A DNA stretch of 60,283 bases from Alphaproteobacteria bacterium. GTDB taxonomy: Bacteria; Pseudomonadota; Alphaproteobacteria; CAAHEQ01; UBA3637. The notes below the pieces were generated by a model, which was not told the origin of the DNA, ran no database searches, and saw nothing but the letters and a program-made list of their open reading frames with translations. A program made the position numbers and the translations under genes. The DNA is taken from positions 1-60,283 of the forward strand of contig JAZKXP010000006.1 in NCBI GenBank assembly GCA_045611665.1, written 5' to 3'. Below, piece by piece: positions 23,606 to 47,597 of this stretch (the first letter of the stretch is position 1; the number at the start of each line of letters is the position of its first letter).

Positions 23606-24499
23606 ATGAATTCTAAATCAACTCATACACATACAGCAAAAGAAGAAGTTTGCAAAACATCTGCTTGCAAGTGCGGTGAAGATTGCAAGTGCTGTGAAAC
23701 ATCTTGCTGTTCTAAATTTTTAATGCCGGCTACTGTTTTGGCCAGTGCTATTTTGATTTCCGGTTCTATTTTGGCAGTGGCTTTTGACGGTCCGTGTGCT
23801 CGTAGAGTAAAGTCAATGAAAGACAAAGGAATGCGTCAAGAACAAGTTATTCATGATTATATCGTGAAAAATCCGAAAGTATTGATTGACACAGTTGAAA
23901 AATACTATGAAGAACAACGTAAAGCCGAAGCTAAAAAAGCTCCGCAAAAACCTGCTCCGCAAGCCGAAGCCGATAAAACTTTGGTTGACGAAATTTTGAA
24001 TGACAAAACGAATCATGTTTTGGGTAACCCAAAAGGTAAATTTGTTATCATTGAATTCTTTGATTATCAATGTGGTTGGTGTAAACGTACCAATAAAGAA
24101 ATTTCTGCAGTGTTGAAAGATGCTCCGAATATTCGTTGGGTTTTGATTGATACACCGATTTTTGGCGAAGCCAGTGAACAAATTGCTCGCTATGCCATGG
24201 CTGCCGGTAAACAAGGTAAATTTAAAGAATATCATGAAGCTATCGGTAATGCCAAAGGTAAATTGGATAAAGATGCCTTGATTAAATTAGGTCGTGATTT
24301 GAAACTTAACACAAAACGTTTGACTGCCGATGCCGAAAGTCAAGAAGTTAAGGATAAAATGGCTAAAAATCAAAAATATGCTCGTCAGTTGAATATTAAC
24401 GGCGTGCCGATGTTGATTGTTGACGGTAAAATTAATCCGGGTGCTTTAATCGGCGACAGATTGGCTGATGCCGTAGCAGCTTCTAAAGCTAAAAAATAA
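23606..24499 (+). CDS. DsbA-family thiol:disulfide oxidoreductase with Cys-rich cytoplasmic N-terminus and membrane anchor
   Basis: DsbA fold with CGWC active site (FFDYQCGWCK). N-terminus CKTSACKCGEDCKCCETSCC (9 Cys in 21 aa) precedes one TM helix. Confidence 0.8.
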   Translation: MNSKSTHTHTAKEEVCKTSACKCGEDCKCCETSCCSKFLMPATVLASAILISGSILAVAFDGPCARRVKSMKDKGMRQEQVIHDYIVKNPKVLIDTVEKYYEEQRKAEAKKAPQKPAPQAEADKTLVDEILNDKTNHVLGNPKGKFVIIEFFDYQCGWCKRTNKEISAVLKDAPNIRWVLIDTPIFGEASEQIARYAMAAGKQGKFKEYHEAIGNAKGKLDKDALIKLGRDLKLNTKRLTADAESQEVKDKMAKNQKYARQLNINGVPMLIVDGKINPGALIGDRLADAVAASKAKK

Positions 24500-24595
24500 T
24501 TCTGTTAGCTTGTCCATAGACAGAGGGGATTTTTTCCTCTCTGTTTTTTTTGTTGTATATTGCATTTTAATTCAAAAGGCCGTAGAATAACTTTG

Positions 24596-25453
24596 ATGAA
24601 AAGTGTTGGTTTTATTGTATTTATTTTTTTATTGACGGCCTGTCATTCATATAAGGTGCCTATGGTGCCTTCTTATCAGCAAATTCCCGTTATACAGGTT
24701 AAAAAAGATGATACGTTGTATTCATTGGCAAAACGGTATGATACAACGGTTCAGGAGTTGGCTCGTAAAAACAATATTGCCGATCCAACCGCTTTACAGG
24801 TTGGTCAAGATTTGCATTTACCCAAAGCGGTGCGGGTTGCGACGTATCAAGAGCCGGCTGTATCTTCGGACACGAAAACAGTTAAAAAAACAGCACGCTC
24901 GATTAAAGAGAATAAAACAAACAGCCCAAAACAAGCAGGTGGTACAAAAAAGTCAAGTTCTGGAGCGTCAAAAATATCTGCGACCCAATCAAAAAACAAA
25001 CTGTCTGCGACATCTAAAAAATATCCGAAACCAACTCAAAAAATGACAAAATTGGATAAGCCGTTTGTGGCAACGGGCAAAGTTCATTTTTCTTGGCCTT
25101 TAAAAGGCAATGTTATTTCTTCTTTTGGTTCTAAGGGCGGCGGTGTCAAAAATGACGGTATTAATATTGCTGCGGCTCAAGGAACGTCTATTAAAGCCGC
25201 TGAGGCCGGTATTGTCGTTTATGCCGGTAATGAGTTAAAGGGATATGGTAATTTATTGTTGATACGTCACGAAAAAGATTTTATGAGTGCGTATGCTCAT
25301 GCCGATAAATTGTATGTTAAAACAGGGGATGTTGTTGCAAAAGGGGATAAAATTGCAACCGTTGGAACGACCGGAAATGTTAAAACACCTCAGTTACATT
25401 TTGAAATTCGTAAAAAAACAAAATCAGTTGATCCAAAAAAATATTTACAATAA
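24596..25453 (+). CDS. nlpD: LysM + M23 peptidase lipoprotein (NlpD-like)
   Basis: ORF track 24560..25453. ATG 24596 gives lipobox FLLTAC. LysM (DTLYSLAKRYDTTVQELARKNNI) and C-terminal M23 (LLIRH....SAYAH...GTTG....PQLHFEIR). Confidence 0.8.
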   Translation: MKSVGFIVFIFLLTACHSYKVPMVPSYQQIPVIQVKKDDTLYSLAKRYDTTVQELARKNNIADPTALQVGQDLHLPKAVRVATYQEPAVSSDTKTVKKTARSIKENKTNSPKQAGGTKKSSSGASKISATQSKNKLSATSKKYPKPTQKMTKLDKPFVATGKVHFSWPLKGNVISSFGSKGGGVKNDGINIAAAQGTSIKAAEAGIVVYAGNELKGYGNLLLIRHEKDFMSAYAHADKLYVKTGDVVAKGDKIATVGTTGNVKTPQLHFEIRKKTKSVDPKKYLQ

Positions 25454-31352: not shown

Positions 31353-31535
31353 CAGGGCGAGTGATGTGCGCCCCGAGGTATAAGAGCCTCTTTTCAGAAG
31401 CATCTTTTAGGATGAAACGTCTTTCCGGCTTGGCTGGAAGGCGGCCCAATAAGCCTTTTGCGGTCAATAAGCCGCACTATATCTTCTGAAATAGCTCTTA
31501 ACTTCCAGTCGCCACTCATCACGGCGATTTTTTAA
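31353..31535 (+). ncRNA. structured cis-regulatory leader RNA, copy A
   Basis: Promoter TTGCTC (31318-31323)/17 nt/TATAAC (31341-31346). GCCCCGAGG-loop-CCTCTT hairpin (31370-31392). Central hairpin CTTTCCGGC-TTG-GCTGGAAGG (31421-31441). GCTCTTA (31494-31500) is complementary to loop TAAGAGC (31381-31387). 3' box ACTTCCAG (31501-31508). Terminator TCGCC..GGCGA plus T6 (31509-31533). The GGAGG RBS and TTG start of 31548 follow. Confidence 0.75.
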
Positions 31536-31547
31536 TGGAGGTTTATT

Positions 31548-32906
31548 TTGAAACGTGATTTTGACTCCGGTCGGTCTATGGTGGAAATCATTGGCGTGAT
31601 GGCGGTGATGGGCGTTTTAATTATCGGCGGAATAGCCGGATACAAATACGCCATAGACAAAGCCAAAGCGAATCACATTATGAAAGATGTAGAACTGGCA
31701 TATGTGGCTGTATCTGCCTCCCCTGACCGAGAAAATATCGGCCTTACCGAATATACCGATGCCGTCAGCGGTTTTCCGACTTTTACAGAATGCATTATAG
31801 ATAAAGACTTTCAAGCAGATATTATCTTAGTCAAACACGTTCCTGAATCGGTCTGTGACAAAGTGTTGGAAATGGCCGAACCGACGCAGTGGATTGTTTC
31901 TTCGGTGGAAACGGATACGAATTATCTGTACCCGTTGACGGAATGTTCGGATACAAATGCATTAGTATTTTCTTTAGCCGATATACGCGATTTTGCATAC
32001 ACTTGCGATAAAGAATGTCCCGCAAATATGATGTGTGGCGTGAATGATGATTGTATTTGTGCCTATGGGTACAAGGCTGATGAAACAGGGACTTGTCAAG
32101 AAATTCAATGTGATGAAACGACAGAAGTCACTTGCACTTTTGACAGAGGGGAAAAATGGTGTTGCCCATACAATACATTCTGCAGCGAAACCCAAATCGG
32201 ACAATGTATTCCCTCAGATGGGTCATGTATTTATTACTTTTATGGTAATGGTAATACAGATTCTAAATATACAACAAATTGTAGTTACTTTGTTGCCGCC
32301 CAAGATACTGTCGAAAAAAATGGAACGAATTGCAGTTATATTATCAGTAGTTCTGGTACAGTAACATCCAACCAAGAATGTCCAGAAAAAAATCATTATT
32401 GCGCACTGATTTGGACAAAAGCAAGTTGGGAGGGAAATGAACAAGAGCCTATTGCATCTGGTAATTTTACTGGAACAATCTATGGTAAATGTCAATCAAT
32501 GGCGGCTTTTGAACGAACACCCGTCGTCTCATACAAAGAAGGAAAGTCAATGATTTACCCAAATATTGAATGTCCAGAAAAAAATCATTATTGTGCACTG
32601 ATTTGGACAAAAGAAAATTGGGAAGGAAATGAACAAGAGCCTATTGCATCTGGTAATTTTACTGGAACAATCTATGGTAAATGTCAATCAATGGCGGCTT
32701 TTGAACAAACACCTATTATGAAACACAATGATGCCAATCCTTTAAATTATCGTGTTGAAAAAGAATGTCCTCAAAAGCAATATTGCCATTTACAATGGTC
32801 AAATGAAATCTGCGAAATAGCTCCTGCAGATATAACTGGCCCAATATATGGAGCATGCGCGAGCATGAACACCTCAAATAAAGCTTGTCCCATAAAATCA
32901 GAATAA
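31548..32906 (+). CDS. Cys-rich protein with type IV pilin-like class III signal (sub-family A)
   Basis: TTG start 7 nt after GGAGG. MKRDFDSG|RSMVEIIGVMAVMGVLIIGGIAGYKYA. Head domain and three C-terminal ~64-aa repeats homologous to 1642..3069. Confidence 0.8.
   Translation: MKRDFDSGRSMVEIIGVMAVMGVLIIGGIAGYKYAIDKAKANHIMKDVELAYVAVSASPDRENIGLTEYTDAVSGFPTFTECIIDKDFQADIILVKHVPESVCDKVLEMAEPTQWIVSSVETDTNYLYPLTECSDTNALVFSLADIRDFAYTCDKECPANMMCGVNDDCICAYGYKADETGTCQEIQCDETTEVTCTFDRGEKWCCPYNTFCSETQIGQCIPSDGSCIYYFYGNGNTDSKYTTNCSYFVAAQDTVEKNGTNCSYIISSSGTVTSNQECPEKNHYCALIWTKASWEGNEQEPIASGNFTGTIYGKCQSMAAFERTPVVSYKEGKSMIYPNIECPEKNHYCALIWTKENWEGNEQEPIASGNFTGTIYGKCQSMAAFEQTPIMKHNDANPLNYRVEKECPQKQYCHLQWSNEICEIAPADITGPIYGACASMNTSNKACPIKSE
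32376..32900 (+). repeat. three tandem ~192-195-bp coding repeats; units 1 and 2 nearly identical
   Basis: Units start at about 32376, 32568 and 32763. Units 1 and 2 share a ~145-nt stretch with only a handful of mismatches (ECPEKNHYCALIWTK..WEGNEQEPIASGNFTGTIYGKCQSMAAFE). Confidence 0.85.
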
Positions 32907-32933: not shown

Positions 32934-33338
32934 ATGAAAAAAGTACTCATACTAATATGTATTATTTTAACAATATTTAATATTACATCAGTGCATGCGG
33001 AATCTTGTGCTGGTGGACATGGTACAATTCAAACTGGTATAAATGGCAAAAAGTATTGCGCCAGCAAAAATACTTTAAATTGGTGGAGCGCTCATGCTTG
33101 GTGTCGAAAAGCCGAAGGATTTTCTGAACTACTAACCATGGAAGATTGTGATTGTACTGGTTATGATGAATGTGATACAACATTAAGTTGTCCAAATTTA
33201 AAAAATATTTATGAAAGTTGGTCTGGTATTCCTGCGGGAAAAGATAACGCATATTATTTTTCGTATGGAGCCGTCAAACATCCTGGCCCTCTTGGAAGAT
33301 ATCGAAATTGGGGGGGCTATAGAGCACTATGTAAATAA
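32934..33338 (+). CDS. small secreted Cys-rich C-type-lectin-like protein
   Basis: Signal peptide. KYCASKNTLNWWSAHAWCRKAEGF...YRALCK pattern. Paralog of 43109..43555. 27 nt downstream of the pilin-like gene, so probably co-transcribed. Confidence 0.7.
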   Translation: MKKVLILICIILTIFNITSVHAESCAGGHGTIQTGINGKKYCASKNTLNWWSAHAWCRKAEGFSELLTMEDCDCTGYDECDTTLSCPNLKNIYESWSGIPAGKDNAYYFSYGAVKHPGPLGRYRNWGGYRALCK

Positions 33339-33447
33339 TTTTTCACTTTTGATTTTCTTTTATCCCCCATCAATGGGGGATTTTTTGTGCCATATATACA
33401 AAAAAAATACGCCGGCAAAACCGGCGTATCGTTATTCAAACCCCATC

Positions 33448-35018: not shown

Positions 35019-36214
35019 CACGGACTCAGCCTGTTAAAAAATTCGGTCTTGGATTGTGGAGTGCTGTTTCACTGGGAATAGGGTCTATTATTGGCGCCGG
35101 TATTTTTGCTTTATTGGGACAAGTGGTTTTATTGGCGGGAGATAAAACCTATTTATCTTTTTTGGTTTCCGGTATTATTGCATGTTTATGCGGATATACG
35201 TATGCAAAATTAGCCGCTGTTTATCCCGATTCCGGAGGGTTAACGGATTATTTTCATAATGCTTTTAAATCTAAATTAGTATCCGGAAGCTTATCGTTAA
35301 TTTATTATTTTACGTCGGCGGTTTCTATTTGTACGATGGCAAAATCTTTTGGCCTTTATATGGATCAGTTATTGCCTCATACATTTTTGCCACATTTGGT
35401 CGTTAATGTGTGCGCTGCCGGATTAATTGTTGCGTTGGGTTTTTTGAATATGTTGACGTCATCTGATGTCGGCCGGGTGGAAACGATTTTGGTGTCTTTA
35501 AAGGTTGGGATTATGTGCTTATTAGTTGCGGCTGCCGTTTATCAGTTTGATTTTCGTTTCCATGCACACCCGATTAAACCGACAACTATGGATTTTTTTC
35601 GTAGCGTAGGTATTACATTTTTTGCCTATGCCGGATTTGGTGTGATTACGAATGCGGCAGCCGATGTAAAAAATCCGCAAAAAACAATTACACACGCGAT
35701 TTATTTAACGTTGGGAATAGTTGCTTTACTGTATATGGGATTGGCATTCGTCGTCTTAAACTATGTTCCGATGGCCGAATTTTATAAAAATACGGATACG
35801 GCTGTGGCTGTGGCGGCCAATAAATTATTAGGACGGGCCGGATATGGCGTTTTATATGTTGCCGCCATCATGGCTTTTATATCCGGTATCAGCGCCACTT
35901 TTTTCAGCATTTTCCGCATTTCCCGTTCTTTGGCCTATCAAGGTGTTATGCCGAAAATTTATAAAGAAAAGTTTTGGCATAAAGGTAGTTACGGTAATTT
36001 TTTAACGGTTTGTCTGGTGACATTAGCCACAATTTTATTTGATTTTAATGCTATCGTTAATTTATCCAGCGGAGCTTATTTAGTCAGCTATTTGAGTATT
36101 TTTATCGCAGGTTTTGTTTTGCGTAAAAAAACACAAATCAGTGTTCCGATTGTGGCAACCGGTTTTATGTTAATGAGTGGTGTTTTAATCGGATTTTTAA
36201 TCAGCTTAAGTTAA
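35015..36214 (+). CDS. APC-superfamily amino acid permease
   Basis: 12-TM protein. N-terminal GSIIGAGIFALLG motif. Confidence 0.75.
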   Translation: MTRTQPVKKFGLGLWSAVSLGIGSIIGAGIFALLGQVVLLAGDKTYLSFLVSGIIACLCGYTYAKLAAVYPDSGGLTDYFHNAFKSKLVSGSLSLIYYFTSAVSICTMAKSFGLYMDQLLPHTFLPHLVVNVCAAGLIVALGFLNMLTSSDVGRVETILVSLKVGIMCLLVAAAVYQFDFRFHAHPIKPTTMDFFRSVGITFFAYAGFGVITNAAADVKNPQKTITHAIYLTLGIVALLYMGLAFVVLNYVPMAEFYKNTDTAVAVAANKLLGRAGYGVLYVAAIMAFISGISATFFSIFRISRSLAYQGVMPKIYKEKFWHKGSYGNFLTVCLVTLATILFDFNAIVNLSSGAYLVSYLSIFIAGFVLRKKTQISVPIVATGFMLMSGVLIGFLISLS

Positions 36215-37140
36215 TTTTTTAAATATGCCTTAATTTTATTTTTGACTTGTTTTTTGGTGGTTTTAAATGATTTTTTTAATCCTTGAATTTTAGCGGTAAT
36301 AAAATCTTTTTTGCGTTTGAGCGTTGTTTGTTTTGTGATACCTAACAGATGTTTTTTTTGATTTTTTGTTAAGTCCATTTGTTTGATGGTATCATTATAA
36401 ATACGATAAATTTCATTCCAATGTTTCCAGAAAATACATAATTTTGTTTTATCGGTTTTATGTGACAATGATTTTGGATAAATAATATATTTTGATAAGA
36501 TTTCATCTAAATAACAATAGGTGCCAAAGTAATTAACAGGAATTTGAATTTGAAAGTTTTGTCCTATTCGTGACGGATAAATTTTTAAGGTGGGATTTGC
36601 TGCTGCCAATTTTTTTGTTCGCATTAAATACCCGCATTGTCCAATCCAAGACTCATCTTGTAATAAATTCATCAGCATATTTGTTTTATCGGGATTTAAC
36701 CGAATTTGGTATAAGGTTTTTTCGGTATTTTCAGCAGATACAACATCATAGGGGTGATAAACAATGTCACATTCGGGATTATTTTTTAATGTATGGACCA
36801 ATTTTTCTATACGGGTTGGCAACATAATATCATCACTGTCAAATTGAGTGAAAAATTCACCTGTAACATATGGCAATCCTAAATTACAGGCATGGCCTAT
36901 ACCACCATTTTTAGGTGATTGAATATATGTAATTTTAATATTGTTTTTTTGTAAAATGGATTGCCACTGTTGAAAAATGCTGTGAGTTGTATCTGTTGAA
37001 GCATCATTGATAAAAATTAATTCAATCGGCCTGTATGTTTGTTTTAATAAAGAATTTAAAAAAATATCCATTGTTTTAGCGCCATTATAGCATGGAGTTA
37101 AAACGGATACTAAATTTTTTTTAAAATGATTTTTACTCAT
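36211..37140 (-). CDS. family 2 glycosyltransferase
   Basis: VSVLTPCYNGAKTMDIFLNSLLKQTY..IELIFINDASTD GT-A signature. Confidence 0.8.
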   Translation of the reverse strand: MSKNHFKKNLVSVLTPCYNGAKTMDIFLNSLLKQTYRPIELIFINDASTDTTHSIFQQWQSILQKNNIKITYIQSPKNGGIGHACNLGLPYVTGEFFTQFDSDDIMLPTRIEKLVHTLKNNPECDIVYHPYDVVSAENTEKTLYQIRLNPDKTNMLMNLLQDESWIGQCGYLMRTKKLAAANPTLKIYPSRIGQNFQIQIPVNYFGTYCYLDEILSKYIIYPKSLSHKTDKTKLCIFWKHWNEIYRIYNDTIKQMDLTKNQKKHLLGITKQTTLKRKKDFITAKIQGLKKSFKTTKKQVKNKIKAYLKN

Positions 37141-38176
37141 AGTAATCTGTTATGTCCTTGTGTGAATTAAATTGTGATAAACATGTATGATAAAAAGGGG
37201 ATGATATTCCGGATAACAAAGGAACAATTTGTGCCAGGCTTTGTTTTTTATGATATGGATTCCAACTGACAAAATTTTGATTTGATAATATTTCAAAATT
37301 ATCCGGCGTAATTAAATCAAAATAAAATCCGCCGGCATTTTTTTCACGGACCGTTATTGTCGGGATATCATGATTAATTAAATCCATGGCTGCATATCCG
37401 CCACGACAAACGGCTAAACAAAAATGATTTGTTTTTAAATAATCCGATACATCCACGAATCCGTCATATATCAAACGGTGCTGATGGTTAATTTTATGGC
37501 TGTCCGGTATTGGATAGCCGATACAATGTATTGTGTATGTTTTGGGTAAAATATCAATAATATCATTTAAAATATCATGTATGGGTGTTTGATTGGTCAA
37601 CATAAATAATATGTTATGAGAGGGATAAAATGTCGGTTTTTTGTTTGAAACGTTATAAGCGTTTTTAACTAACAGTGTTTTATCCAGATACCGGGGGAAT
37701 TTTTGTATAAACATATCGGCAAGCGGAAGGCTGACCGTGATGATTTTATCAAAAGATTTTTGGGGTGGACAAAATAATGAAACGGAAGGAAGACCGTGCA
37801 ATGTATAAAAGAGTTTTGTTTTGTTGGACAGAACGGGTAAATCGGCAATCCATTCAGTATAAAACGGGTGTATATCCAGTATGTCAAACCGGCAAAAAAA
37901 TAAAAAGGACGTTAAAATATTTTGTTTGAAAGGGATAATAACGATATCTTTAAAATAACCGGTTGGTTTTATTTTCATATCTTGTTTTTGTGTTTGAGTC
38001 AGCAAAACAAAATGGTATTTTTGATGGTATAAATTAACAATATGATTGATACGGGTTTCTAAGCCACCCCCTTTGAATGATTCGGAAACAATCAGGATTT
38101 TTTTTCTTTTGTTAAAGAGGGTATGTGTGAAACACCGAATGATTTGTCCGTAAATTTTAAAATTATCAAATACCAT
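37133..38176 (-). CDS. putative GT-B-fold glycosyltransferase
   Basis: N-terminal KILIVSESFKGGGLE resembles the GT4-type N-terminus. Within the operon, overlapping neighbours. Weak similarity only. Confidence 0.45.
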   Translation of the reverse strand: MVFDNFKIYGQIIRCFTHTLFNKRKKILIVSESFKGGGLETRINHIVNLYHQKYHFVLLTQTQKQDMKIKPTGYFKDIVIIPFKQNILTSFLFFCRFDILDIHPFYTEWIADLPVLSNKTKLFYTLHGLPSVSLFCPPQKSFDKIITVSLPLADMFIQKFPRYLDKTLLVKNAYNVSNKKPTFYPSHNILFMLTNQTPIHDILNDIIDILPKTYTIHCIGYPIPDSHKINHQHRLIYDGFVDVSDYLKTNHFCLAVCRGGYAAMDLINHDIPTITVREKNAGGFYFDLITPDNFEILSNQNFVSWNPYHKKQSLAQIVPLLSGISSPFYHTCLSQFNSHKDITDYYE

Positions 38177-38182
38177 AGGGGA

Positions 38183-39301
38183 TCAATCCAAATGCTGAGA
38201 TAAAATGGCTTCAATTTGTTGAGCAGCCGTTCCACTTCCATAGGGATTGAGTTTTTTGTTTAAGCGTGTATCGGCTTTACTTTGAGATAAAATATGACGG
38301 GCATTTGAGATGATTTTTTCTGTATCGGCACCGACCAATTCGGCAAAACCGGCTTCTACTCCTTCCATGCGTTCTGTTTCATAACGCATCACCAAAATGG
38401 GAACGCCGAAAGAGGGCGCTTCTTCTTGAATACCACCCGAATCGGTTAAAATTAATTTTGCCTCACGCATCAGACAAACCATTTGAGGATAGGTAAGAGG
38501 GGAAGTGAGAATAATATTTTCCCGTCCGGATAATTCGGCATGTACTTTTTCCTTTACGTTGGGATTGGGATGTACCGGTAAAATAAATTGATGGTCCGGA
38601 TAGGCCGAAGATAATGCCCAAATGGCCGCCAAAATATCATTCAGGCGTGATCCGTGATTTTCTCGGCGATGGACAGTACACAGTACCAGTTTATCATTGA
38701 ATGTAATCCCCTTTTCCGAAAGGGTATTTTTGGCGTCAAAGAGAGCTTCATCAGATAAACAGGTGAGGGCATCAATAACGGTATTACCGGTTAGATAAAT
38801 TTTATCGGCCTGTATATTTTCTGAACGTAAAGCATTTACGGCTTTTTGTGTTGGAGCGCAATGCCATGTTGTGATACGGGCCGTCATTTGACGCAGTGCT
38901 TCTTCCGGAAACGGTTCAAATAAGTCATAAGACCGGAGACCGGCTTCCACATGACAAACGGGTACTTTGTGATAAAATGCCGTTAGAGCCCCACATAGTA
39001 CGGTCATTGTGTCGCCTTGAACAATGACACAATCCGGTGGTGTTGTTTTGAATGTGTTATTTAAAGCCGTTAATATACGCGCCTGTATTTCCGTCAGAGT
39101 TTGATTTGGTCTCATACAGTCTAAATTCATATCGGCTTGAATATTAAAAAACTGAAGCGTTTGGTTAGACAGCTCTTTTTGTTGTTCTGTATTACAAACG
39201 ATAACTTGGTATTTTTCCGGATATTTTTTTAATTCTAAAATAACTGGAGCTAATTTTATAGCCTCAGGCCGCGTTCCCAAAATGATTAAAATTGTTTTCA
39301 T
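38183..39301 (-). CDS. wecB: UDP-N-acetylglucosamine 2-epimerase (non-hydrolysing)
   Basis: ILGTRPEAIKLAP, HVEAGLRS, TDSGGIQEEAPSFGVP motifs. Confidence 0.9.
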   Translation of the reverse strand: MKTILIILGTRPEAIKLAPVILELKKYPEKYQVIVCNTEQQKELSNQTLQFFNIQADMNLDCMRPNQTLTEIQARILTALNNTFKTTPPDCVIVQGDTMTVLCGALTAFYHKVPVCHVEAGLRSYDLFEPFPEEALRQMTARITTWHCAPTQKAVNALRSENIQADKIYLTGNTVIDALTCLSDEALFDAKNTLSEKGITFNDKLVLCTVHRRENHGSRLNDILAAIWALSSAYPDHQFILPVHPNPNVKEKVHAELSGRENIILTSPLTYPQMVCLMREAKLILTDSGGIQEEAPSFGVPILVMRYETERMEGVEAGFAELVGADTEKIISNARHILSQSKADTRLNKKLNPYGSGTAAQQIEAILSQHLD

Positions 39302-40544
39302 TTAATATCTCCTGTAATATATGATGCCACCGATTTCGCCATATTTTTTTAGAAAAGCATTGGCTGGTTTTTAGGGCATTTTGTGATAATTGCATTCGTA
39401 AGTTTGGATTTGACAGAACCAATTCTAAGGTTTCCAATAATTCTTTTGAATTCGGATTAATTAATAAACCGTTATAGCCTTGTAAAATCAAGTTGGGCAG
39501 ACCTCCGACATTTGTGGCAATAACGGTGTTGCCCGAAGCCATAGCCTCTAAACATGATAGGCTGGTGCCTTCGGAATGTAAGGTTGGGATGAGGCAAATA
39601 TCCGTATTTTGATAAACCTCAGGCATTTTATCACCTTCAACAATGCGATGGGAAATTTGATTCGGAAATTGGTGTTTTAACCTGTCTAAATCCTGCACGA
39701 TTTCTTCTTGGCAGGGAAAGCCTACAAATTCAAACAATACATCCGGATGACGAGACAGTAAAGTCGGTAAAATATCGGCGGTTTCCCAATACCCTCGTTC
39801 AATGGAACATCGTCTGGGAAAGGTTATTTTTACGGGATGATTTATTCTTTTAATCGGTTTGAAAGTGTCTAAATCTACGTAATTTGGAATGTAGTACATT
39901 TTTTTGTCGGATTGATAAACCGTCTGTGAAAATGTGGAACGAAACCAAGATAATGTGTTGGTATCTACGGATATAAAAGTGTCAGTCTCTTTTAAATAGA
40001 TATCATATAATTGTGTGATATTTTCGACATTTTTTTTGACGATATCCCATGTAATGCCGTGAGAAATTCGTATGTTTGGATGATTTAAGGGGCCGAAATT
40101 GGCAACACCCGAGTAAATGTATAACGCCGCTTTCGGTAATTTAGATAACATGTCGGCAATAAAGGCTGTTTCGTAAACGGGTATGCCGATAACGTTCAGA
40201 TTATTTTTGTTTCGAAAAAACGGTGCGATATCTTGATTGGCATTTTGCAATAAAATAGGGATATATCCCATATCTGTCAGCAATTGTGCTAAATCTAAAG
40301 CATACCGTTCTCCACCGCCCGAAAAAAAGTTTTCACCCCGAAAATCAAAAAAGGATTCTTGAATGATGTAAATGGCTTTATCTGTTTTTCCACCCGTTAT
40401 TGAGATTATTTTGTCACAAATCGGGTCGGCATTTTTCAGTAAGTATTTTTGAAAGGCTTTAAATTTTTTAAATCGTCTGTATTTTTTTAACGGACAAACG
40501 GCTGTTTTAAAGGCACGTTTATACCATGGTTTAGGCTTTTTCAT
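39264..40544 (-). CDS. family 4 (GT-B) glycosyltransferase
   Basis: C-terminal EGTSLSCLEAMASGNTVIATNVGGLP..I..G.NG is the GT1/GT4 E-x7-E region. Confidence 0.8.
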   Translation of the reverse strand: MKKPKPWYKRAFKTAVCPLKKYRRFKKFKAFQKYLLKNADPICDKIISITGGKTDKAIYIIQESFFDFRGENFFSGGGERYALDLAQLLTDMGYIPILLQNANQDIAPFFRNKNNLNVIGIPVYETAFIADMLSKLPKAALYIYSGVANFGPLNHPNIRISHGITWDIVKKNVENITQLYDIYLKETDTFISVDTNTLSWFRSTFSQTVYQSDKKMYYIPNYVDLDTFKPIKRINHPVKITFPRRCSIERGYWETADILPTLLSRHPDVLFEFVGFPCQEEIVQDLDRLKHQFPNQISHRIVEGDKMPEVYQNTDICLIPTLHSEGTSLSCLEAMASGNTVIATNVGGLPNLILQGYNGLLINPNSKELLETLELVLSNPNLRMQLSQNALKTSQCFSKKIWRNRWHHILQEILNENNFNHFGNAA

Positions 40545-41388
40545 ATTTTTTCCCCATTAATCCTTTGATAACGAATAAACCGTAAAATAATCGCCCCCAA
40601 AGGGGTGAAACGGTTAAAATTTTATCTTTACTTGTTTTGTCCTTTAATCGTTTGAATTGTTTAAATAAACTGACTGTTTTGGTATAAGATGATAAGTGCC
40701 ATTGAGACCAATAAGCCAGTTTTACTTCTAATGTTTTTTGTTGGACTTGCTGTTGTTTGGTTGCGGTTAAAGAGGATGAATTGTCACGATATTTATATAA
40801 GCAATCATTTAATTTCATAAAATGAATGCCGGCTGTGTATAAGCGCATCCAATATTCGTAATCTTCTGCACAAAATAAGTTTTCATTATATCCGCCCAAT
40901 GTATCGTAACATGTTCGTCGATATAAAAAACACGCTCCGATACAGCACCCGTTGTATAATGATTTTGGGGTTTTTAAACGGATAGTTTTTTTTGCGTTTC
41001 CTTGCTCATCAATGATTTGCATATCGGCATAAACAAAGTCGGTTTCGGGATGTGATTGAAAAGCGTTTATCATCACCTCAAACGCATTGGGCAGATATCT
41101 GTTATCATCACTGGTCCAAGTGAAAAAATCACCTTTTGCTTGGGCAAATCCTATGTTCAATGAGGCCGGTAATTTTTTATTAACCGCATTGGTTATGATA
41201 CGAATTCGATTATCTTTTTTGGCGTAATCTTTTAAAATATCGGCGGTTTTGTCGGTTGAACAATCATTGATGATAATCAGCTCAAAGTCCGCAAACGTTT
41301 GTGCCAAAATACTGTCAATGGATTCGGATAAAAATCGCATACCGTTATATGTCGGCAAAATAACCGATAGTGTCGGATTTTGTGTCAT
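40531..41388 (-). CDS. family 2 glycosyltransferase (first gene of operon)
   Basis: LSVILPTYNG..FL.ESIDSILAQTF.DFELIIINDCSTD; DDN motif. Confidence 0.8.
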   Translation of the reverse strand: MTQNPTLSVILPTYNGMRFLSESIDSILAQTFADFELIIINDCSTDKTADILKDYAKKDNRIRIITNAVNKKLPASLNIGFAQAKGDFFTWTSDDNRYLPNAFEVMINAFQSHPETDFVYADMQIIDEQGNAKKTIRLKTPKSLYNGCCIGACFLYRRTCYDTLGGYNENLFCAEDYEYWMRLYTAGIHFMKLNDCLYKYRDNSSSLTATKQQQVQQKTLEVKLAYWSQWHLSSYTKTVSLFKQFKRLKDKTSKDKILTVSPLWGRLFYGLFVIKGLMGKKYEKA

Positions 41389-41504
41389 ACTTTCCCCCTT
41401 AAAGTATTTACGAATATAATCGGATAGGTTATATGGGGGGTATCGACTGAAAAATCAATACTTTTGTGTAAAAAAAACATATATTTCAAACTCCCGTTTT
41501 TTGT

Positions 41505-41687
41505 TAAACAAAAACCACTTAAAAAGTGGTTGGAAGTTGAACACTACTTTAGCCAAATAGTACATCGTATTCGCCGGAACAACGACTTATTCAGATGTCT
41601 TCCAACCGTTGTTGGAAGTATTGATATCCTGTTTTTTCAAGATAGGCTAAAAAGAGGTGTTCAAACCTCGGGGCAAAAAATTACCTT
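41505..41687 (-). ncRNA. structured cis-regulatory leader RNA, copy D (upstream of glycosyltransferase operon)
   Basis: On the minus strand: GCCCCGAGG-TTTGAACA-CCTCTT. Loop TTGAACAC (plus-strand 41657-41664) is complementary to GTGTTCAA (41537-41544). Central hairpin CTTCCAAC-AACG-GTTGGAAG (41599-41618). 3' box ACTTCCAACC (41528-41537). Terminator AACCACTT-TTT-AAGTGGTT plus T run (41505-41531). Weak promoter TTGCAT/17 nt/TACCCT (41694-41722). Confidence 0.7.
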
Positions 41688-41793
41688 ATTCTCAGGGTAT
41701 CAAAAATTTTTTTAAGATGCAACATAAAAATAAAAAGATTGCATTTTATATGTTTTTTTGGCACACTGTTTTTTATCAGAAAAGGGCAATGAA

Positions 41794-42381
41794 ATGTTTG
41801 AACAATTGGAACAAATTCGTCAAAAATGTGCAGCATGTCAAAAGTGTGCATTGTGTCAAACTCGCACAAAATCCGTTTTTTCCGGTGGTATTCCAAATCA
41901 TAAATTGATGTTAATTGGTGAAGCTCCCGGTTTTTTTGAAGACCAACAAGGTGAACCTTTTGTCGGAAAAGCCGGTCAGTTATTGGATAAAATTTTTGAA
42001 TCGGTAGGCTTAAGTCGTCAAAAAGATGTGTATATTTGCAATACGATTAAGTGTCGTCCGCCCGATAACCGAGACCCTTTGCCTCAGGAAAAAGAGGCGT
42101 GTCGAGAGTATCTGGATGCTCAGCTTGATATTTTAAAGCCCAAAATTATTTTATTGTGTGGTAAGGTGGCTTTAAAATCCTTTGTTAATACAGATTTAGG
42201 TATTACAAAGGTGCGAGGTAAATGGTTTGATGGGCCAAACGGGGCTAAAATGATGCCGATTTTTCATCCGTCGTATTTGCTCAGAAATGCTCAAAAAACC
42301 GTCGGGTCTCCGAAGTGGTTAATGTGGCAGGATATTCAAGAAATTAAACGGGTCTATGATACGTTATCTGGTGGCGATTAA
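41794..42381 (+). CDS. udg: family 4 uracil-DNA glycosylase
   Basis: ORF track 41758..42381. ATG 41794 follows RBS AAAGGG. C..C..C Fe-S cysteines, GEAPG..ED..G.PFVG.AG, HPS. Confidence 0.85.
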   Translation: MFEQLEQIRQKCAACQKCALCQTRTKSVFSGGIPNHKLMLIGEAPGFFEDQQGEPFVGKAGQLLDKIFESVGLSRQKDVYICNTIKCRPPDNRDPLPQEKEACREYLDAQLDILKPKIILLCGKVALKSFVNTDLGITKVRGKWFDGPNGAKMMPIFHPSYLLRNAQKTVGSPKWLMWQDIQEIKRVYDTLSGGD

Positions 42382-42824
42382 AAAGAGTTAGCTGTTATTT
42401 TGTTGACATCACAGGCGGGCGGTAAAGTGTCTTCTTTCACTTTGACCAATTCCCCCGTTGGTGTTAATTCATAAAGGGTGAGGGTAATGGGATGAACATC
42501 CATCCACGAGTTGCCAAACTCACGTTTTTTGCGTACAATCCGAAATGGATTTGTGTAAAAGTCAAAATCTTGTACCATGCAGTCGGCTCCTTCCATCGTG
42601 TTAAAATTTTCTACAGAAATTTGATGCCATTTATTATCCCGAAAAACTTCCAATAAAAACGTATCGTACCCATGAGCGGTTATATTGGGACTATGTATAC
42701 GTGTTATGCGAATTTTTATGTTGTTTTGTGTCAAATCGGTTGTGCCGATCGGTATGTTTAACGGTTCGGCCCATACCACGGCAGACCACATCATCACACA
42801 TAATCCCAATAAAAATTTTATCAT
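42378..42824 (-). CDS. hypothetical secreted protein
   Basis: 148 aa with signal peptide MIKFLLGLCVMMWSAVVWA. No recognisable domain. Confidence 0.5.
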   Translation of the reverse strand: MIKFLLGLCVMMWSAVVWAEPLNIPIGTTDLTQNNIKIRITRIHSPNITAHGYDTFLLEVFRDNKWHQISVENFNTMEGADCMVQDFDFYTNPFRIVRKKREFGNSWMDVHPITLTLYELTPTGELVKVKEDTLPPACDVNKITANSF

Positions 42825-42895
42825 ATTTTACGAATACGTCATTTTAAACCATTTTTCGGGTTGATTTTTGTATGTGGATTTGCTAATCTGATTTT

Positions 42896-43077
42896 AAGGT
42901 AAGTATTTTGCCCCGAGGTGTCAGAACCTCTTAAAGCGCGTCCGACAGCGGACGAAAAATATACGCTTTCCAGCATTGGCTGGAGGGCGGCAAAATAGGC
43001 AGTAATGCTGAATATGCCCACTATTCGCTTTAATAGTTCTGAACTTCCAGCCACTTTTTTTATAAAGGTGGTTTTTT
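42896..43077 (+). ncRNA. structured cis-regulatory leader RNA, copy B
   Basis: Promoter TTGATT (42861-42866)/17 nt/TAATCT (42884-42889). GCCCCGAGG-TGTCAGAA-CCTCTT (42910-42932). Loop TCAGAAC (42921-42927) is complementary to GTTCTGA (43036-43042). Central hairpin CTTTCCAGC-ATTG-GCTGGAGGG (42966-42987). 3' box ACTTCCAGCC (43043-43052). Terminator CCAC..GGTGG plus T6 (43051-43077). Confidence 0.75.
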
Positions 43078-43108
43078 GTTGAATGATAACAGAAAGGGAA
43101 TGTTCAAA

Positions 43109-43555
43109 ATGAAAAACTTATTTTTAATCTGTGCTGTTTTATTCACTACACCTGTTGCATTGGCCGATGATATCACTACCGAAACTTGTGCGAATGGCGC
43201 CGGAACAGTTATTGTGGGAAAAAGCGGTACTCAATATTGCATGAGCAACAATACAATGAATTTTTGGAATGCTTATTCTTGGTGTGATTCTTTGGGGATG
43301 CGTTTTATTGATTTAAATACTGAATGTGGATGTTCATCATTAGTTGATTGTAATGGACCTGTAAATACAGCAGGAAAATGTCCTGAATTGGCAACGGGGG
43401 TGGATACAAATATTTATATTTGGACAACATATTCTCAGGGACAAAATCCCTTGCTGATGAGCATTAATAATGGTGAAATTACATCGTATTGGACATATCG
43501 TTCACACACATCAAATGGTGTTAAAGGATGGCCATATCATGCTTTATGTCGCTAA
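43109..43555 (+). CDS. small secreted Cys-rich C-type-lectin-like protein
   Basis: ORF track 43076..43555. ATG 43109 follows RBS AAAGGGA and gives signal peptide MKNLFLICAVLFTTPVALA. QYCMSNNTMNFWNAYSWCDSLGMRF...YHALCR. Paralog of 32934..33338. Confidence 0.7.
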   Translation: MKNLFLICAVLFTTPVALADDITTETCANGAGTVIVGKSGTQYCMSNNTMNFWNAYSWCDSLGMRFIDLNTECGCSSLVDCNGPVNTAGKCPELATGVDTNIYIWTTYSQGQNPLLMSINNGEITSYWTYRSHTSNGVKGWPYHALCR

Positions 43556-47385: not shown

Positions 47386-47414
47386 TTAGACTTCCTTTCA
47401 ATTTACAAATTAAA

Positions 47415-47597
47415 CGAAAACCACCTTTATAAAAAAAGTGGCTGGAAGTTAAGAGCTATTAAAACCAAACAGTATGATATATTGACCCCATAGGGCTATT
47501 TTATCATCCTCCAGCCAATGCTGGAAGTATTTTATGTCCTTGACTATAGGACAGGTTTTAAGAGGCTCTTATACCTCAGGGCAGAACACCTGCCTTA
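47415..47597 (-). ncRNA. structured cis-regulatory leader RNA, copy C
   Basis: Promoter TTGCAA (47627-47632)/17 nt/TAGTGT (47604-47609) on the minus strand. GCCCTGAGG-TATAAGAG-CCTCTT. Loop TAAGAGC (plus 47565-47571) is complementary to GCTCTTA (plus 47450-47456). Central hairpin CTTCCAGC-ATTG-GCTGGAGG (47508-47528). 3' box ACTTCCAGCC (47440-47449). Terminator (47417-47440). Confidence 0.75.

Follow-up and report, generated by a model that had tools for sequence, protein, structure and literature searches.

Between two divergent genes of this contig from an uncultured alphaproteobacterium lies a 369-nt gap that raises a two-part question: is the RNA-like element that it holds, here called copy D, a working switch, and if so, is it the switch of the five-gene glycan operon that begins beyond it? 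The gap separates a plus-strand gene of the uracil-DNA glycosylase family (Pfam; 41758–42381) from a minus-strand gene cluster that begins at 41388; all coordinates, unless preceded by a locus name, refer to the window, that is, the whole 60,283-nt stretch of DNA that was analyzed (contig JAZKXP010000006.1). A reading made from the letters of the DNA (hereafter, the sequence-only reading) had proposed that copy D is a structured cis-acting leader RNA that chooses between a terminator and an antiterminator, and our analysis supports this proposal for a whole family of leaders, of which 104 distinct copies were collected, all from uncultured gut Alphaproteobacteria. This family is previously undescribed, in that no description of the motif was found in the literature searched. 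We place it in a new class of riboswitch-like transcription attenuator, and it is a strong candidate for a regulator of that kind. Copy D itself is very probably a structured cis-acting attenuator. The explanation that best accounts for the locus as a whole, which we hold with moderate confidence, is that copy D is an intact riboswitch-like attenuator in which a signal induces read-through, and that it is coupled to the glycan operon. If this is correct, the leaders would represent a riboswitch-like class that is still an orphan, counts more than 100 representatives, and shows covariation of unusual clarity.

Architecture of copy D

The RNA of copy D is predicted to run from approximately 41687 to 41506 on the minus strand, and all of its parts described below are on that strand. 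Its promoter (41694–41722) consists of a −35 element (TTGCAT, 41722–41717), a 17-nt spacer, and a −10 element (TACCCT, 41699–41694). The spacer ends in TG, making an extended −10 element (TG plus −10, 41702–41694), and transcription is predicted to start at about 41687. When 109 upstream regions were aligned, the same sigma-70-type layout (TTGCA/TTGACA, 17 nt, TGnTAnnnT) recurred ahead of the leaders at a constant spacing.

The sensor part of the leader (41528–41687) comprises the helices P1 and P2, a four-way junction (P3/P4/P5/P6(P7)), a pseudoknot, and a 3′ box. P2 is a GAGG/CCUC hairpin (41654–41669), the loop of which, UUGAACAC (41664–41657), forms the 5′ strand of the pseudoknot and is complementary to its 3′ strand, GUGUUCAA (41537–41544). 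P3 (41548–41651), in which UUUAGCC (41651–41645) pairs with GGCUAAA (41554–41548), closes the four-way junction, and inside it lie P4 (41644–41625), the P5 hairpin (41599–41618), and P6/P7 (41598–41562). The 5′ arm of P5, designated a, is CUUCCAAC (41618–41611), and its 3′ arm, the switch strand a′, is GUUGGAAG (41606–41599). The 3′ box, ACUUCCAACC (41528–41537), pairs with a′ in the antiterminator and overlaps the 5′ arm of the terminator, AACCACUU-UUU-AAGUGGUU, which is followed by the tail UUUGUUU (41506–41531). A terminator scan called this hairpin independently, and with eight pairs (three of them G-C), a 3-nt loop, and a U-run, it qualifies as an intrinsic terminator. Its 5′ arm has AACC in common with the 3′ box, in agreement with the earlier claim that the terminator stem of copy D physically includes the box; the pairings that had been quoted for copy D (loop, stem, 3′ box, and terminator) were likewise all found in their places on the minus strand.

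Copy D scored 135 bits (E = 1e-31) with the first of two covariance models (R1) and 120 bits with the second (R2). Its single-sequence minimum free energy (MFE) structure contains P1, P3, P4, P5, P6, P7, and the terminator, and the leader folds with a z score of −5.9 relative to shuffled sequences. An nhmmer search with the D region as the query returned exactly three more copies in the window (E 6e-13 to 9e-07), with matches at 31354–31510 (+; copy A), 42896–43052 (+; copy B), and 47596–47440 (−; copy C). The corresponding leaders occupy 31354–31540 (+), 42896–43080 (+), and 47410–47596 (−), and the two covariance models identified the same four leaders in the window and no others. Copy D had been described as the most divergent of the four, and its mean identity is indeed 57%, compared with 60–63% for the others.

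Conserved fold and covariation

Covariation was computed on the 104 distinct sequences after alignment to a model for which 10 of these had been used. Read from its 5′ end, the element of the family consists of the following parts: the promoter, P1, P2 (GAGG/CCUC with an 8-nt loop), the P3-closed junction with P4, P5, and P6/P7, the 3′ strand of the pseudoknot, the 3′ box, and the terminator. The sensor is approximately 160 nt long, the pseudoknot forms between the P2 loop and the strand that directly follows P3 on its 3′ side, and the conserved unpaired stretches are AAAAUAG, AAUAU, ACUAU, and ARUAG. Standard pairs filled 96.0% of the cells, whereas they filled 70% in shuffled alignments, and none of 500 shuffles reached the observed value. 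Compensatory double changes were present in 39 of the 42 pairs, and when the 3′ partners were slid by 1–3 columns, pairing was only 40–49%. By helix, pairing was 100% in P2, 97.7% in P3 (with all seven pairs covarying), 91% in P4, and 97.6% in both P5 and P6.

The pseudoknot was 98.9% paired, with compensatory changes in six of its six pairs. Its partners differ even within the window, from UAAGAGC/GCUCUUA in copies A and C to UCAGAAC/GUUCUGA in copy B. Because the pseudoknot and the helix between a′ and the 3′ box (a′:3′-box helix) lie outside the search model, they provide independent tests of the fold. The sequence-only reading had held that the pairings of the leader are maintained by compensatory changes; this is true across the family, and P1, P3, P4, P6, and P7 can be added to the helices that it had recognized. 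The leaders thus possess a conserved, structured sensor domain backed by covariation, as a riboswitch should.

A switch strand shared by two helices

The 3′ arm of P5 (a′; e.g., GCUGGAAG) is complementary both to the 5′ arm of the same hairpin (a) and to the 3′ box, and it covaries with both partners, although P5 and the a′:3′-box helix are mutually exclusive. The latter is a perfect 9-bp duplex that was 99.1% paired, with 66 doubly changed cells vs 18 in shuffles, and the triplets (a, a′, box) at three variable positions covary: CGC/UAU/CGU, GCG/AUA, AUA/GUA/UAU/GCG. Both alternative helices are possible in 87 of 90 sequences. In 68 of the 90, a differs in sequence from the 3′ box, which indicates that the box is not merely a duplicated protein site. 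Of the 104 distinct copies, 103 have a hairpin, followed by a U-run, that begins 3–4 nt into the 3′ box, and because the 5′ arm of the terminator begins there, pairing between a′ and the box would remove the basal G-C pairs of the terminator. The family therefore also shows the second feature expected of a riboswitch, mutually exclusive structures that overlap a terminator. If the interpretation holds, a single segment that covaries with two alternative partners would be direct evolutionary evidence for a switching strand.

Several copies depart from the usual sequence or arrangement of this region. One divergent copy (L072:2672–2841), detected only by the second covariance model (E = 4e-07), keeps the three-way relation with entirely different letters: ACAUUCGUCC (a), GGGCGGAUGU (a′), and ACAUCCGCCC (3′ box). 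The normal 5′ arm of P5 is missing in four copies (L071:258–439, L077:504–681, L098:2516–2702, and L110:2746–2923), three of which come from metagenome-assembled genomes (MAGs) of the rabbit gut (Lapin), and L110 from a MAG labeled BRZ_FB. L071, L077, and L098 carry an extra hairpin (e.g., GCCUUGUUU...AAACAAGGU) inserted before a′, the 3′ arm of which partly duplicates a′; such copies may be a variant of the switch with an additional layer.

Proposed mechanism and nature of the signal

We propose that P5, which is a local, perfect hairpin of 8–9 bp formed before the box is transcribed, would hold a′ and leave the 3′ box free, so that the terminator would form and transcription would stop at about 41506. 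Two things point to termination as the default: P5 is local and is the first to form, and the terminator fold is the MFE structure. The conserved junction and the pseudoknot would then sense a cellular signal that moves a′ onto the 3′ box, and this pairing would take away G-C pairs of the terminator stem and allow RNA polymerase to read through. Between signal-induced read-through and signal-induced termination, we lean slightly toward the former. No conserved open reading frame (ORF) that could encode a leader peptide was seen inside the RNA.

The signal may be a small molecule or a second messenger, which we suggest tentatively. Because the downstream genes mostly encode uncharacterized surface proteins, they do not allow a ligand to be inferred. 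More speculatively, the family might be a new riboswitch class whose ligand is a global signal, for example a cyclic dinucleotide or some other second messenger, or else an envelope precursor. The leader would then act as the master switch of the whole surface repertoire of this host-associated lineage (type IVb-like pilins, lectin-like proteins, outer-membrane barrels, and glycan synthesis), with invertible promoters taking its place in sister lineages. The identity of the signal could reveal a new ligand or regulator.

Folding energies support termination as the resting state: the terminator state was the MFE structure in 84 of 102 copies, and enforcing the antiterminator raised the energy by a mean of 12.8 kcal/mol; in copy D, the two folds have energies of −57.7 and −44.1 kcal/mol, respectively. 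Several points weigh against the explanation that we favor, some of which concern the fold and the mechanism and others the link to the operon, discussed in the next section. The energy model ignores pseudoknots, and the a′:3′-box helix may coexist with P3 and the pseudoknot, so that the energy gap is probably overstated. The direction of switching is deduced solely from thermodynamic and kinetic reasoning. In MFE folds, an extension of the pseudoknot (GAGGU:ACUUC) competes with P2; it pairs in 98.6% of the cells, which is no better than in shuffles, its columns being nearly invariant. Because a DNA pattern was used to retrieve most of the family, the invariance of GAGGU, CCUCUU, UAG, and AACUUCC is in part a product of the search. 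Moreover, an antiterminator that is much less stable than the terminator is also seen in protein- or tRNA-dependent antitermination.

This last point bears on an alternative with the same architecture but a different sensor, in which a dedicated RNA-binding protein or a trans-acting RNA, rather than a metabolite bound by an aptamer, attaches to the junction or to the a′:3′-box helix and stabilizes the weak antiterminator, in the manner of BglG/SacY-RAT, ANTAR, or T-box/tRNA systems. We regard it as a serious possibility, although not a likely one. Like these systems, the leaders would terminate by default, and their antiterminator has nucleotides in common with a terminator that is more stable; the mean energy difference and the predominance of the terminator state are usual for factor-stabilized antiterminators. 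A single regulator could also serve dispersed copies, of which there are four in the 60-kb window and at least 11 in the MAG RGIG3823. However, none of the copies has a candidate regulator gene linked to it, the window genes examined being ordinary, and no T-box or other cis-regulatory family of Rfam was matched. The a′:3′-box duplex lacks the T-box bulge, and UGG in a′ is not conserved; no search aimed at the two-hexaloop signatures of RAT and ANTAR was made. At 160 nt, a four-way junction that has a pseudoknot and many conserved unpaired nucleotides is also larger than typical protein-bound antiterminator sites and resembles a metabolite aptamer.

Comparison with known leaders

The whole window gave no matches in Rfam 15 at the gathering thresholds, a search that included c-di-GMP-I/II, T-box, SAM-I, and JUMPstart. 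When matches with E up to 10 were admitted in 41350–43200, which contains copies D and B, only Histone3 (E = 1.2) and Ysr197 (E = 7.9) appeared, both at chance level and neither in the strand and position of a leader. In function, the closest parallels are the c-di-GMP riboswitches I and II, which precede type IV pilin, adhesin, and flagellar genes (e.g., pilA1 in Clostridioides difficile). They are similar to the present family in having a structured 5′ leader, an intrinsic terminator as the expression platform, and many copies per genome, and in controlling pilins, adhesins, and poorly characterized surface proteins, a comparison that draws in part on a review (PMC11477304). However, neither sequence nor structure similarity to these classes was detected at E up to 10, and the present leaders have a four-way junction, a loop-to-tail pseudoknot, and a duplicated box, and occur in Alphaproteobacteria. 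In architecture, the closest parallel is the SAM-I (S-box) riboswitch, which also has a four-way junction with a long-range closing helix, a hairpin loop that takes part in a pseudoknot, and competition between terminator and antiterminator for a common strand. Nevertheless, its consensus is unrelated (no Rfam match), and the leaders differ from it in that their switch strand is in the internal hairpin P5 and not in the closing helix, the partner of their pseudoknot is the 3′ tail and not a junction strand, and their downstream genes are unrelated to sulfur or methionine metabolism. The JUMPstart/ops-RfaH, UpxY, and LoaP leaders are also conserved 5′ leaders that precede glycan or surface operons and influence termination, but their short signal, in DNA or RNA, brings about processive antitermination along extended operons, whereas the present leaders have their own terminator and a large covarying fold, and no match to the Rfam JUMPstart family was found.

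Relationship between copy D and the glycan operon

The operon beyond copy D (36211–41388, minus strand) consists of five genes that overlap or are 6 nt apart. Pfam assigned the first to the GT2 glycosyltransferases (40531–41388; Glycos_transf_2, E = 4e-33), the second to Glycos_transf_1 (39264–40544; E = 2e-20), the third to the UDP-GlcNAc 2-epimerases (38183–39301; Epimerase_2, E = 1e-102), and the fifth again to GT2 (36211–37140; Glycos_transf_2, E = 8e-30), whereas the fourth, which encodes 347 amino acids (37133–38176), had no match in Pfam or NCBIfam. Of the proposed series GT2, GT4, wecB, GT-B-like, and GT2, four genes therefore stand, and the label “GT-B-like” is unverified. The distance of about 115 nt between leader and operon is also correct: the U-run of the terminator ends approximately 117 nt before the GT2 ATG at 41388. 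From 41506 to the start codon of GT2, the scan called nothing on the operon strand that resembles a terminator.

A link between copy D and this operon is plausible, not proven, and on balance we think that copy D does control it. Read-through transcripts would carry a ribosome-binding site (RBS; GGGAG, 41495–41491) and a 31-codon ORF (41480–41385, MFFLHKSIDFSVDTPHITYPIIFVNTLRGKV), the two spanning 41385–41495 together, and the stop codon of this ORF overlaps the GT2 start codon as ATGA, through which the glycan operon would be expressed by translational coupling.

Alternatively, copy D may have been stranded, in that the Cys-rich gene that it once preceded was replaced when the glycan genes were inserted, and the operon now uses its own promoter between 41505 and 41389. 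We consider this unlikely, but much at the locus is compatible with it. The 117-nt spacer is atypical, and the GT2 start lies 139 nt past the end of the model, compared with the usual 13–62 nt. The ATG at 41480, which at 47 nt past the model end is in the canonical position of a start codon, opens a frame of only 31 codons. The nearest relatives of copy D, L146 (77% identity) and L004 (75%), both precede small Cys-rich genes; their homology with copy D spans the leader, the terminator, and the RBS and stops exactly at ATG 41480, and in both relatives the ATG that matches 41480 starts the small Cys-rich protein. The GC content of the operon is 30–37%, vs approximately 40–42% in both flanks, and this low-GC glycan cluster fits a horizontally acquired or strain-variable locus. 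The closest GT2 homologue in the reference genomes (L199, UBA7488, 51% identity) has no leader by the covariance model, and no close homologous glycan cluster was found in these genomes, which yielded only one moderately close GT2 relative. In addition, a weak candidate internal promoter (TTGATT, 41458–41453; 19-nt spacer; TATAAC, 41433–41428) can be read in the sequence at 41428–41458, between the terminator and the operon.

A sigma-70 scan of 41300–41850 called no promoter in this spacer, but it is insensitive: it missed the candidate owing to the 19-nt spacer and also missed the conserved promoter of the leader itself, and it is thus uninformative on an internal promoter. Against a stranded leader, copy D is intact, with its promoter, all helices, and its terminator, and scores like functional-looking copies, which argues for continuing selection. 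The position of the 31-codon ORF, together with its good RBS and the ATGA overlap, suggests coupling. Other leaders are also found directly before glycosyltransferase genes: the independent metagenomic copies L166 and L179 are 38 and 53 nt, respectively, before genes for a GT2+GT1 fusion and a GT2+glycerophosphotransferase (Glyphos_transf) protein, indicating that glycan genes belong to the repertoire of the family. Returning to the explanation in which copy D is coupled to the operon, the glycan genes probably arrived later and were inserted behind a promoter–leader–RBS module that had once served a small Cys-rich gene. The break in homology at the start codon would then suggest that this module is portable and has captured a newly acquired operon.

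Genes downstream of the leaders

According to the sequence-only reading, one switch appears to govern Cys-rich pilin-like proteins, lectin-like proteins, and a glycan pathway. Leaders do precede pilin-like, small Cys-rich, and glycan genes, and the leader-associated gene set proved wider than had been noted, since it also includes outer-membrane barrels, lipoproteins, and repeat proteins. In the window, copy A precedes a pilin-like gene (31548–32906) followed by a small Cys-rich gene (32934–33338), copy B precedes a gene for a small secreted Cys-rich protein (43109–43555), and copy C precedes a pilin-like gene encoding 479 amino acids (47385–45946). Among the 21 genomic copies found with the DNA pattern, 10 stand before pilin-like genes and 8 before genes for small secreted Cys-rich proteins; the remainder are copy D, before its glycosyltransferase cluster, and two copies cut by contig ends. 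Among 67 distinct metagenomic copies, the next gene is pilin-like in 20, small and Cys-rich in 7, and of another kind in 36, and four copies have no callable gene. The other downstream genes encode outer-membrane beta-barrel/Opacity-type proteins, lipoproteins, RHS-, MORN-, and ankyrin-repeat proteins, an Mrr-domain protein, and many unannotated proteins, most of which have an N-terminal hydrophobic segment. A correspondence between leader subtype and gene class, similar to the specifier of T-boxes, was considered and rejected, as AT-type and GC-type leaders both precede pilin-like and small Cys-rich genes.

The proteins downstream of copies A and C contain a type IV pilin-like motif, SGRSMVEMLGTLAIIGVLS, with E at +5. 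The pilin-like proteins of the window had no match in Pfam or NCBIfam, and a PDB sequence search with these and the small Cys-rich proteins was also empty. However, the pilin-like family has 2424 relatives at E up to 1e-8, and although none is named, some carry the type IVb pilin families PF08805 (PilS N-terminal) and PF05307 (Bundlin), which upholds the label “pilin-like.” The label “lectin-like,” which had been given to the small Cys-rich proteins, fared less well. These proteins have no sequence-level match (Pfam, NCBIfam, or PDB), and when an AlphaFold2 model of one (pLDDT 77, pTM 0.70) was searched with Foldseek, nearly all of the top 50 matches were C-type lectin or CTLD-like folds, but weakly so (best E 0.016, TM-scores 0.34–0.59). 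The predicted fold makes “lectin-like” a lead, not a result. The small Cys-rich family (43109–43555 and 32934–33338, plus strand) has 13 relatives in a collection of 5.8 billion proteins, none of them named, and a similar W..A...C motif, judged by eye, may be present at the C-terminus of the 479-aa pilin-like protein. The window also contains two tandem 297-aa ORFs (23606–24499 and 24560–25453, plus strand), and Pfam places the product of the first among the DsbA-like thioredoxins. Enzymes that form disulfide bonds would be fitting in an organism with so many Cys-rich secreted proteins.

The earlier suggestion that the four downstream units in the window are coregulated and that the pilin-like proteins are glycosylated is a conjecture. 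If the family does act as proposed, it would offer a handle on surface regulation in uncultured gut Alphaproteobacteria, covering pilin-like adhesins, lectin-like proteins, porin-like barrels, and glycans, and the regulon would be definable by sequence alone.

The placement of the leaders also bears on the idea that they are independent small-RNA genes acting in trans, for example via anti-Shine-Dalgarno-like CUUCC motifs, to which the neighboring surface-protein genes would be secondary. Such genes would be expected to have their own promoter and an efficient-looking terminator, as the leaders do, and the default product would be a stable, structured RNA of approximately 180 nt; GGAAG, the complement of the CUUCC boxes, also occurs in several of the downstream ribosome-binding sites. 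However, GGAAG is not general among these sites, every copy is oriented toward the next gene, and the start codon lies within approximately 60 nt in about 90% of cases (in 56 of 63 metagenomic copies, it is 13–62 nt past the end of the model; median, 50 nt). Moreover, the three-way covariation of a, a′, and a 3′ box that overlaps the terminator is the signature of a cis-acting switch, and we consider a primary role in trans improbable.

Distribution of the family and sister lineages

A scan with the exact DNA pattern in one genome per species returned 15 loci, all in MAGs of Alphaproteobacteria from ruminant guts, with several leader copies per MAG. A mis-spaced control pattern of similar information content (seven Ns, not five, before AACTTCC) gave 25 matches, none of which were in Alphaproteobacteria, and the complementarity between loop and tail was absent from all 25. 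A metagenome scan identified 78 loci, in which the covariance model confirmed 72 leaders. When the N-terminus of the pilin-like proteins was used as the query instead, more than 549 loci were found in MAGs of gut Alphaproteobacteria (ruminant, rabbit, human, and other), and in approximately one-quarter of the 80 protein-side loci that were kept, a leader was present just upstream; these leaders include divergent versions out of reach of the DNA pattern. Its multiple copies, its placement before unrelated accessory genes, and the homology breakpoint right behind copy D might suggest that the element is a dispersed DNA repeat, a mobile element, or a chance resemblance and does not function as RNA, but this is highly implausible, because the copies within a genome are only 54–67% identical and yet keep all helices through compensatory changes, no copy is opposite in orientation to its neighboring gene, the sole pattern match in a viral contig shares that 27,089-nt contig with the metagenome locus L140, which the covariance model rejected, and the pseudoknot and the a′:3′-box helix, lying outside the model, speak against an alignment artifact caused by model fitting.

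In the sister MAGs SIG53 and RGIG7750, pilin-like genes occur without the leader, and a conserved segment of approximately 155 bp is present there instead. This segment is flanked by inverted repeats of 12–14 nt (GTAAAAAAAGGGAC ... GTCCCTTTTATTAC), 127 nt apart, and occurs at L047:2783–2937 and L048:2785–2935, as well as in L044, L049, and L054; L058 and L062 have a different repeat. To judge from its sequence, it looks like a candidate invertible (phase-variable) promoter, of the kind known from surface genes of gut bacteria, in the position that the leader occupies before the same pilin-like family. In contrast to an RNA attenuator, an invertible promoter would be a stochastic switch at the DNA level. 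The leader and the candidate invertible promoters of the sister lineages would then form a natural experiment in which responsive and stochastic control can be compared in one gene family.

Three minor observations concern the surroundings of individual leaders. A gene for a 148-aa protein with an N-terminal hydrophobic segment, which has no Pfam or NCBIfam match, adjoins copy B (42378–42824, minus strand). A weak R1 match (15 bits, E = 0.28) lies at 33311–33427 on the minus strand, between the small Cys-rich gene and an OmpA-like gene, and is probably noise, since R2 does not reproduce it. At L120:3894–4030, a second, weaker leader-like match (R2, E = 1.5e-05) is located downstream of a pilin-like gene and may stand before the gene that follows at this locus.

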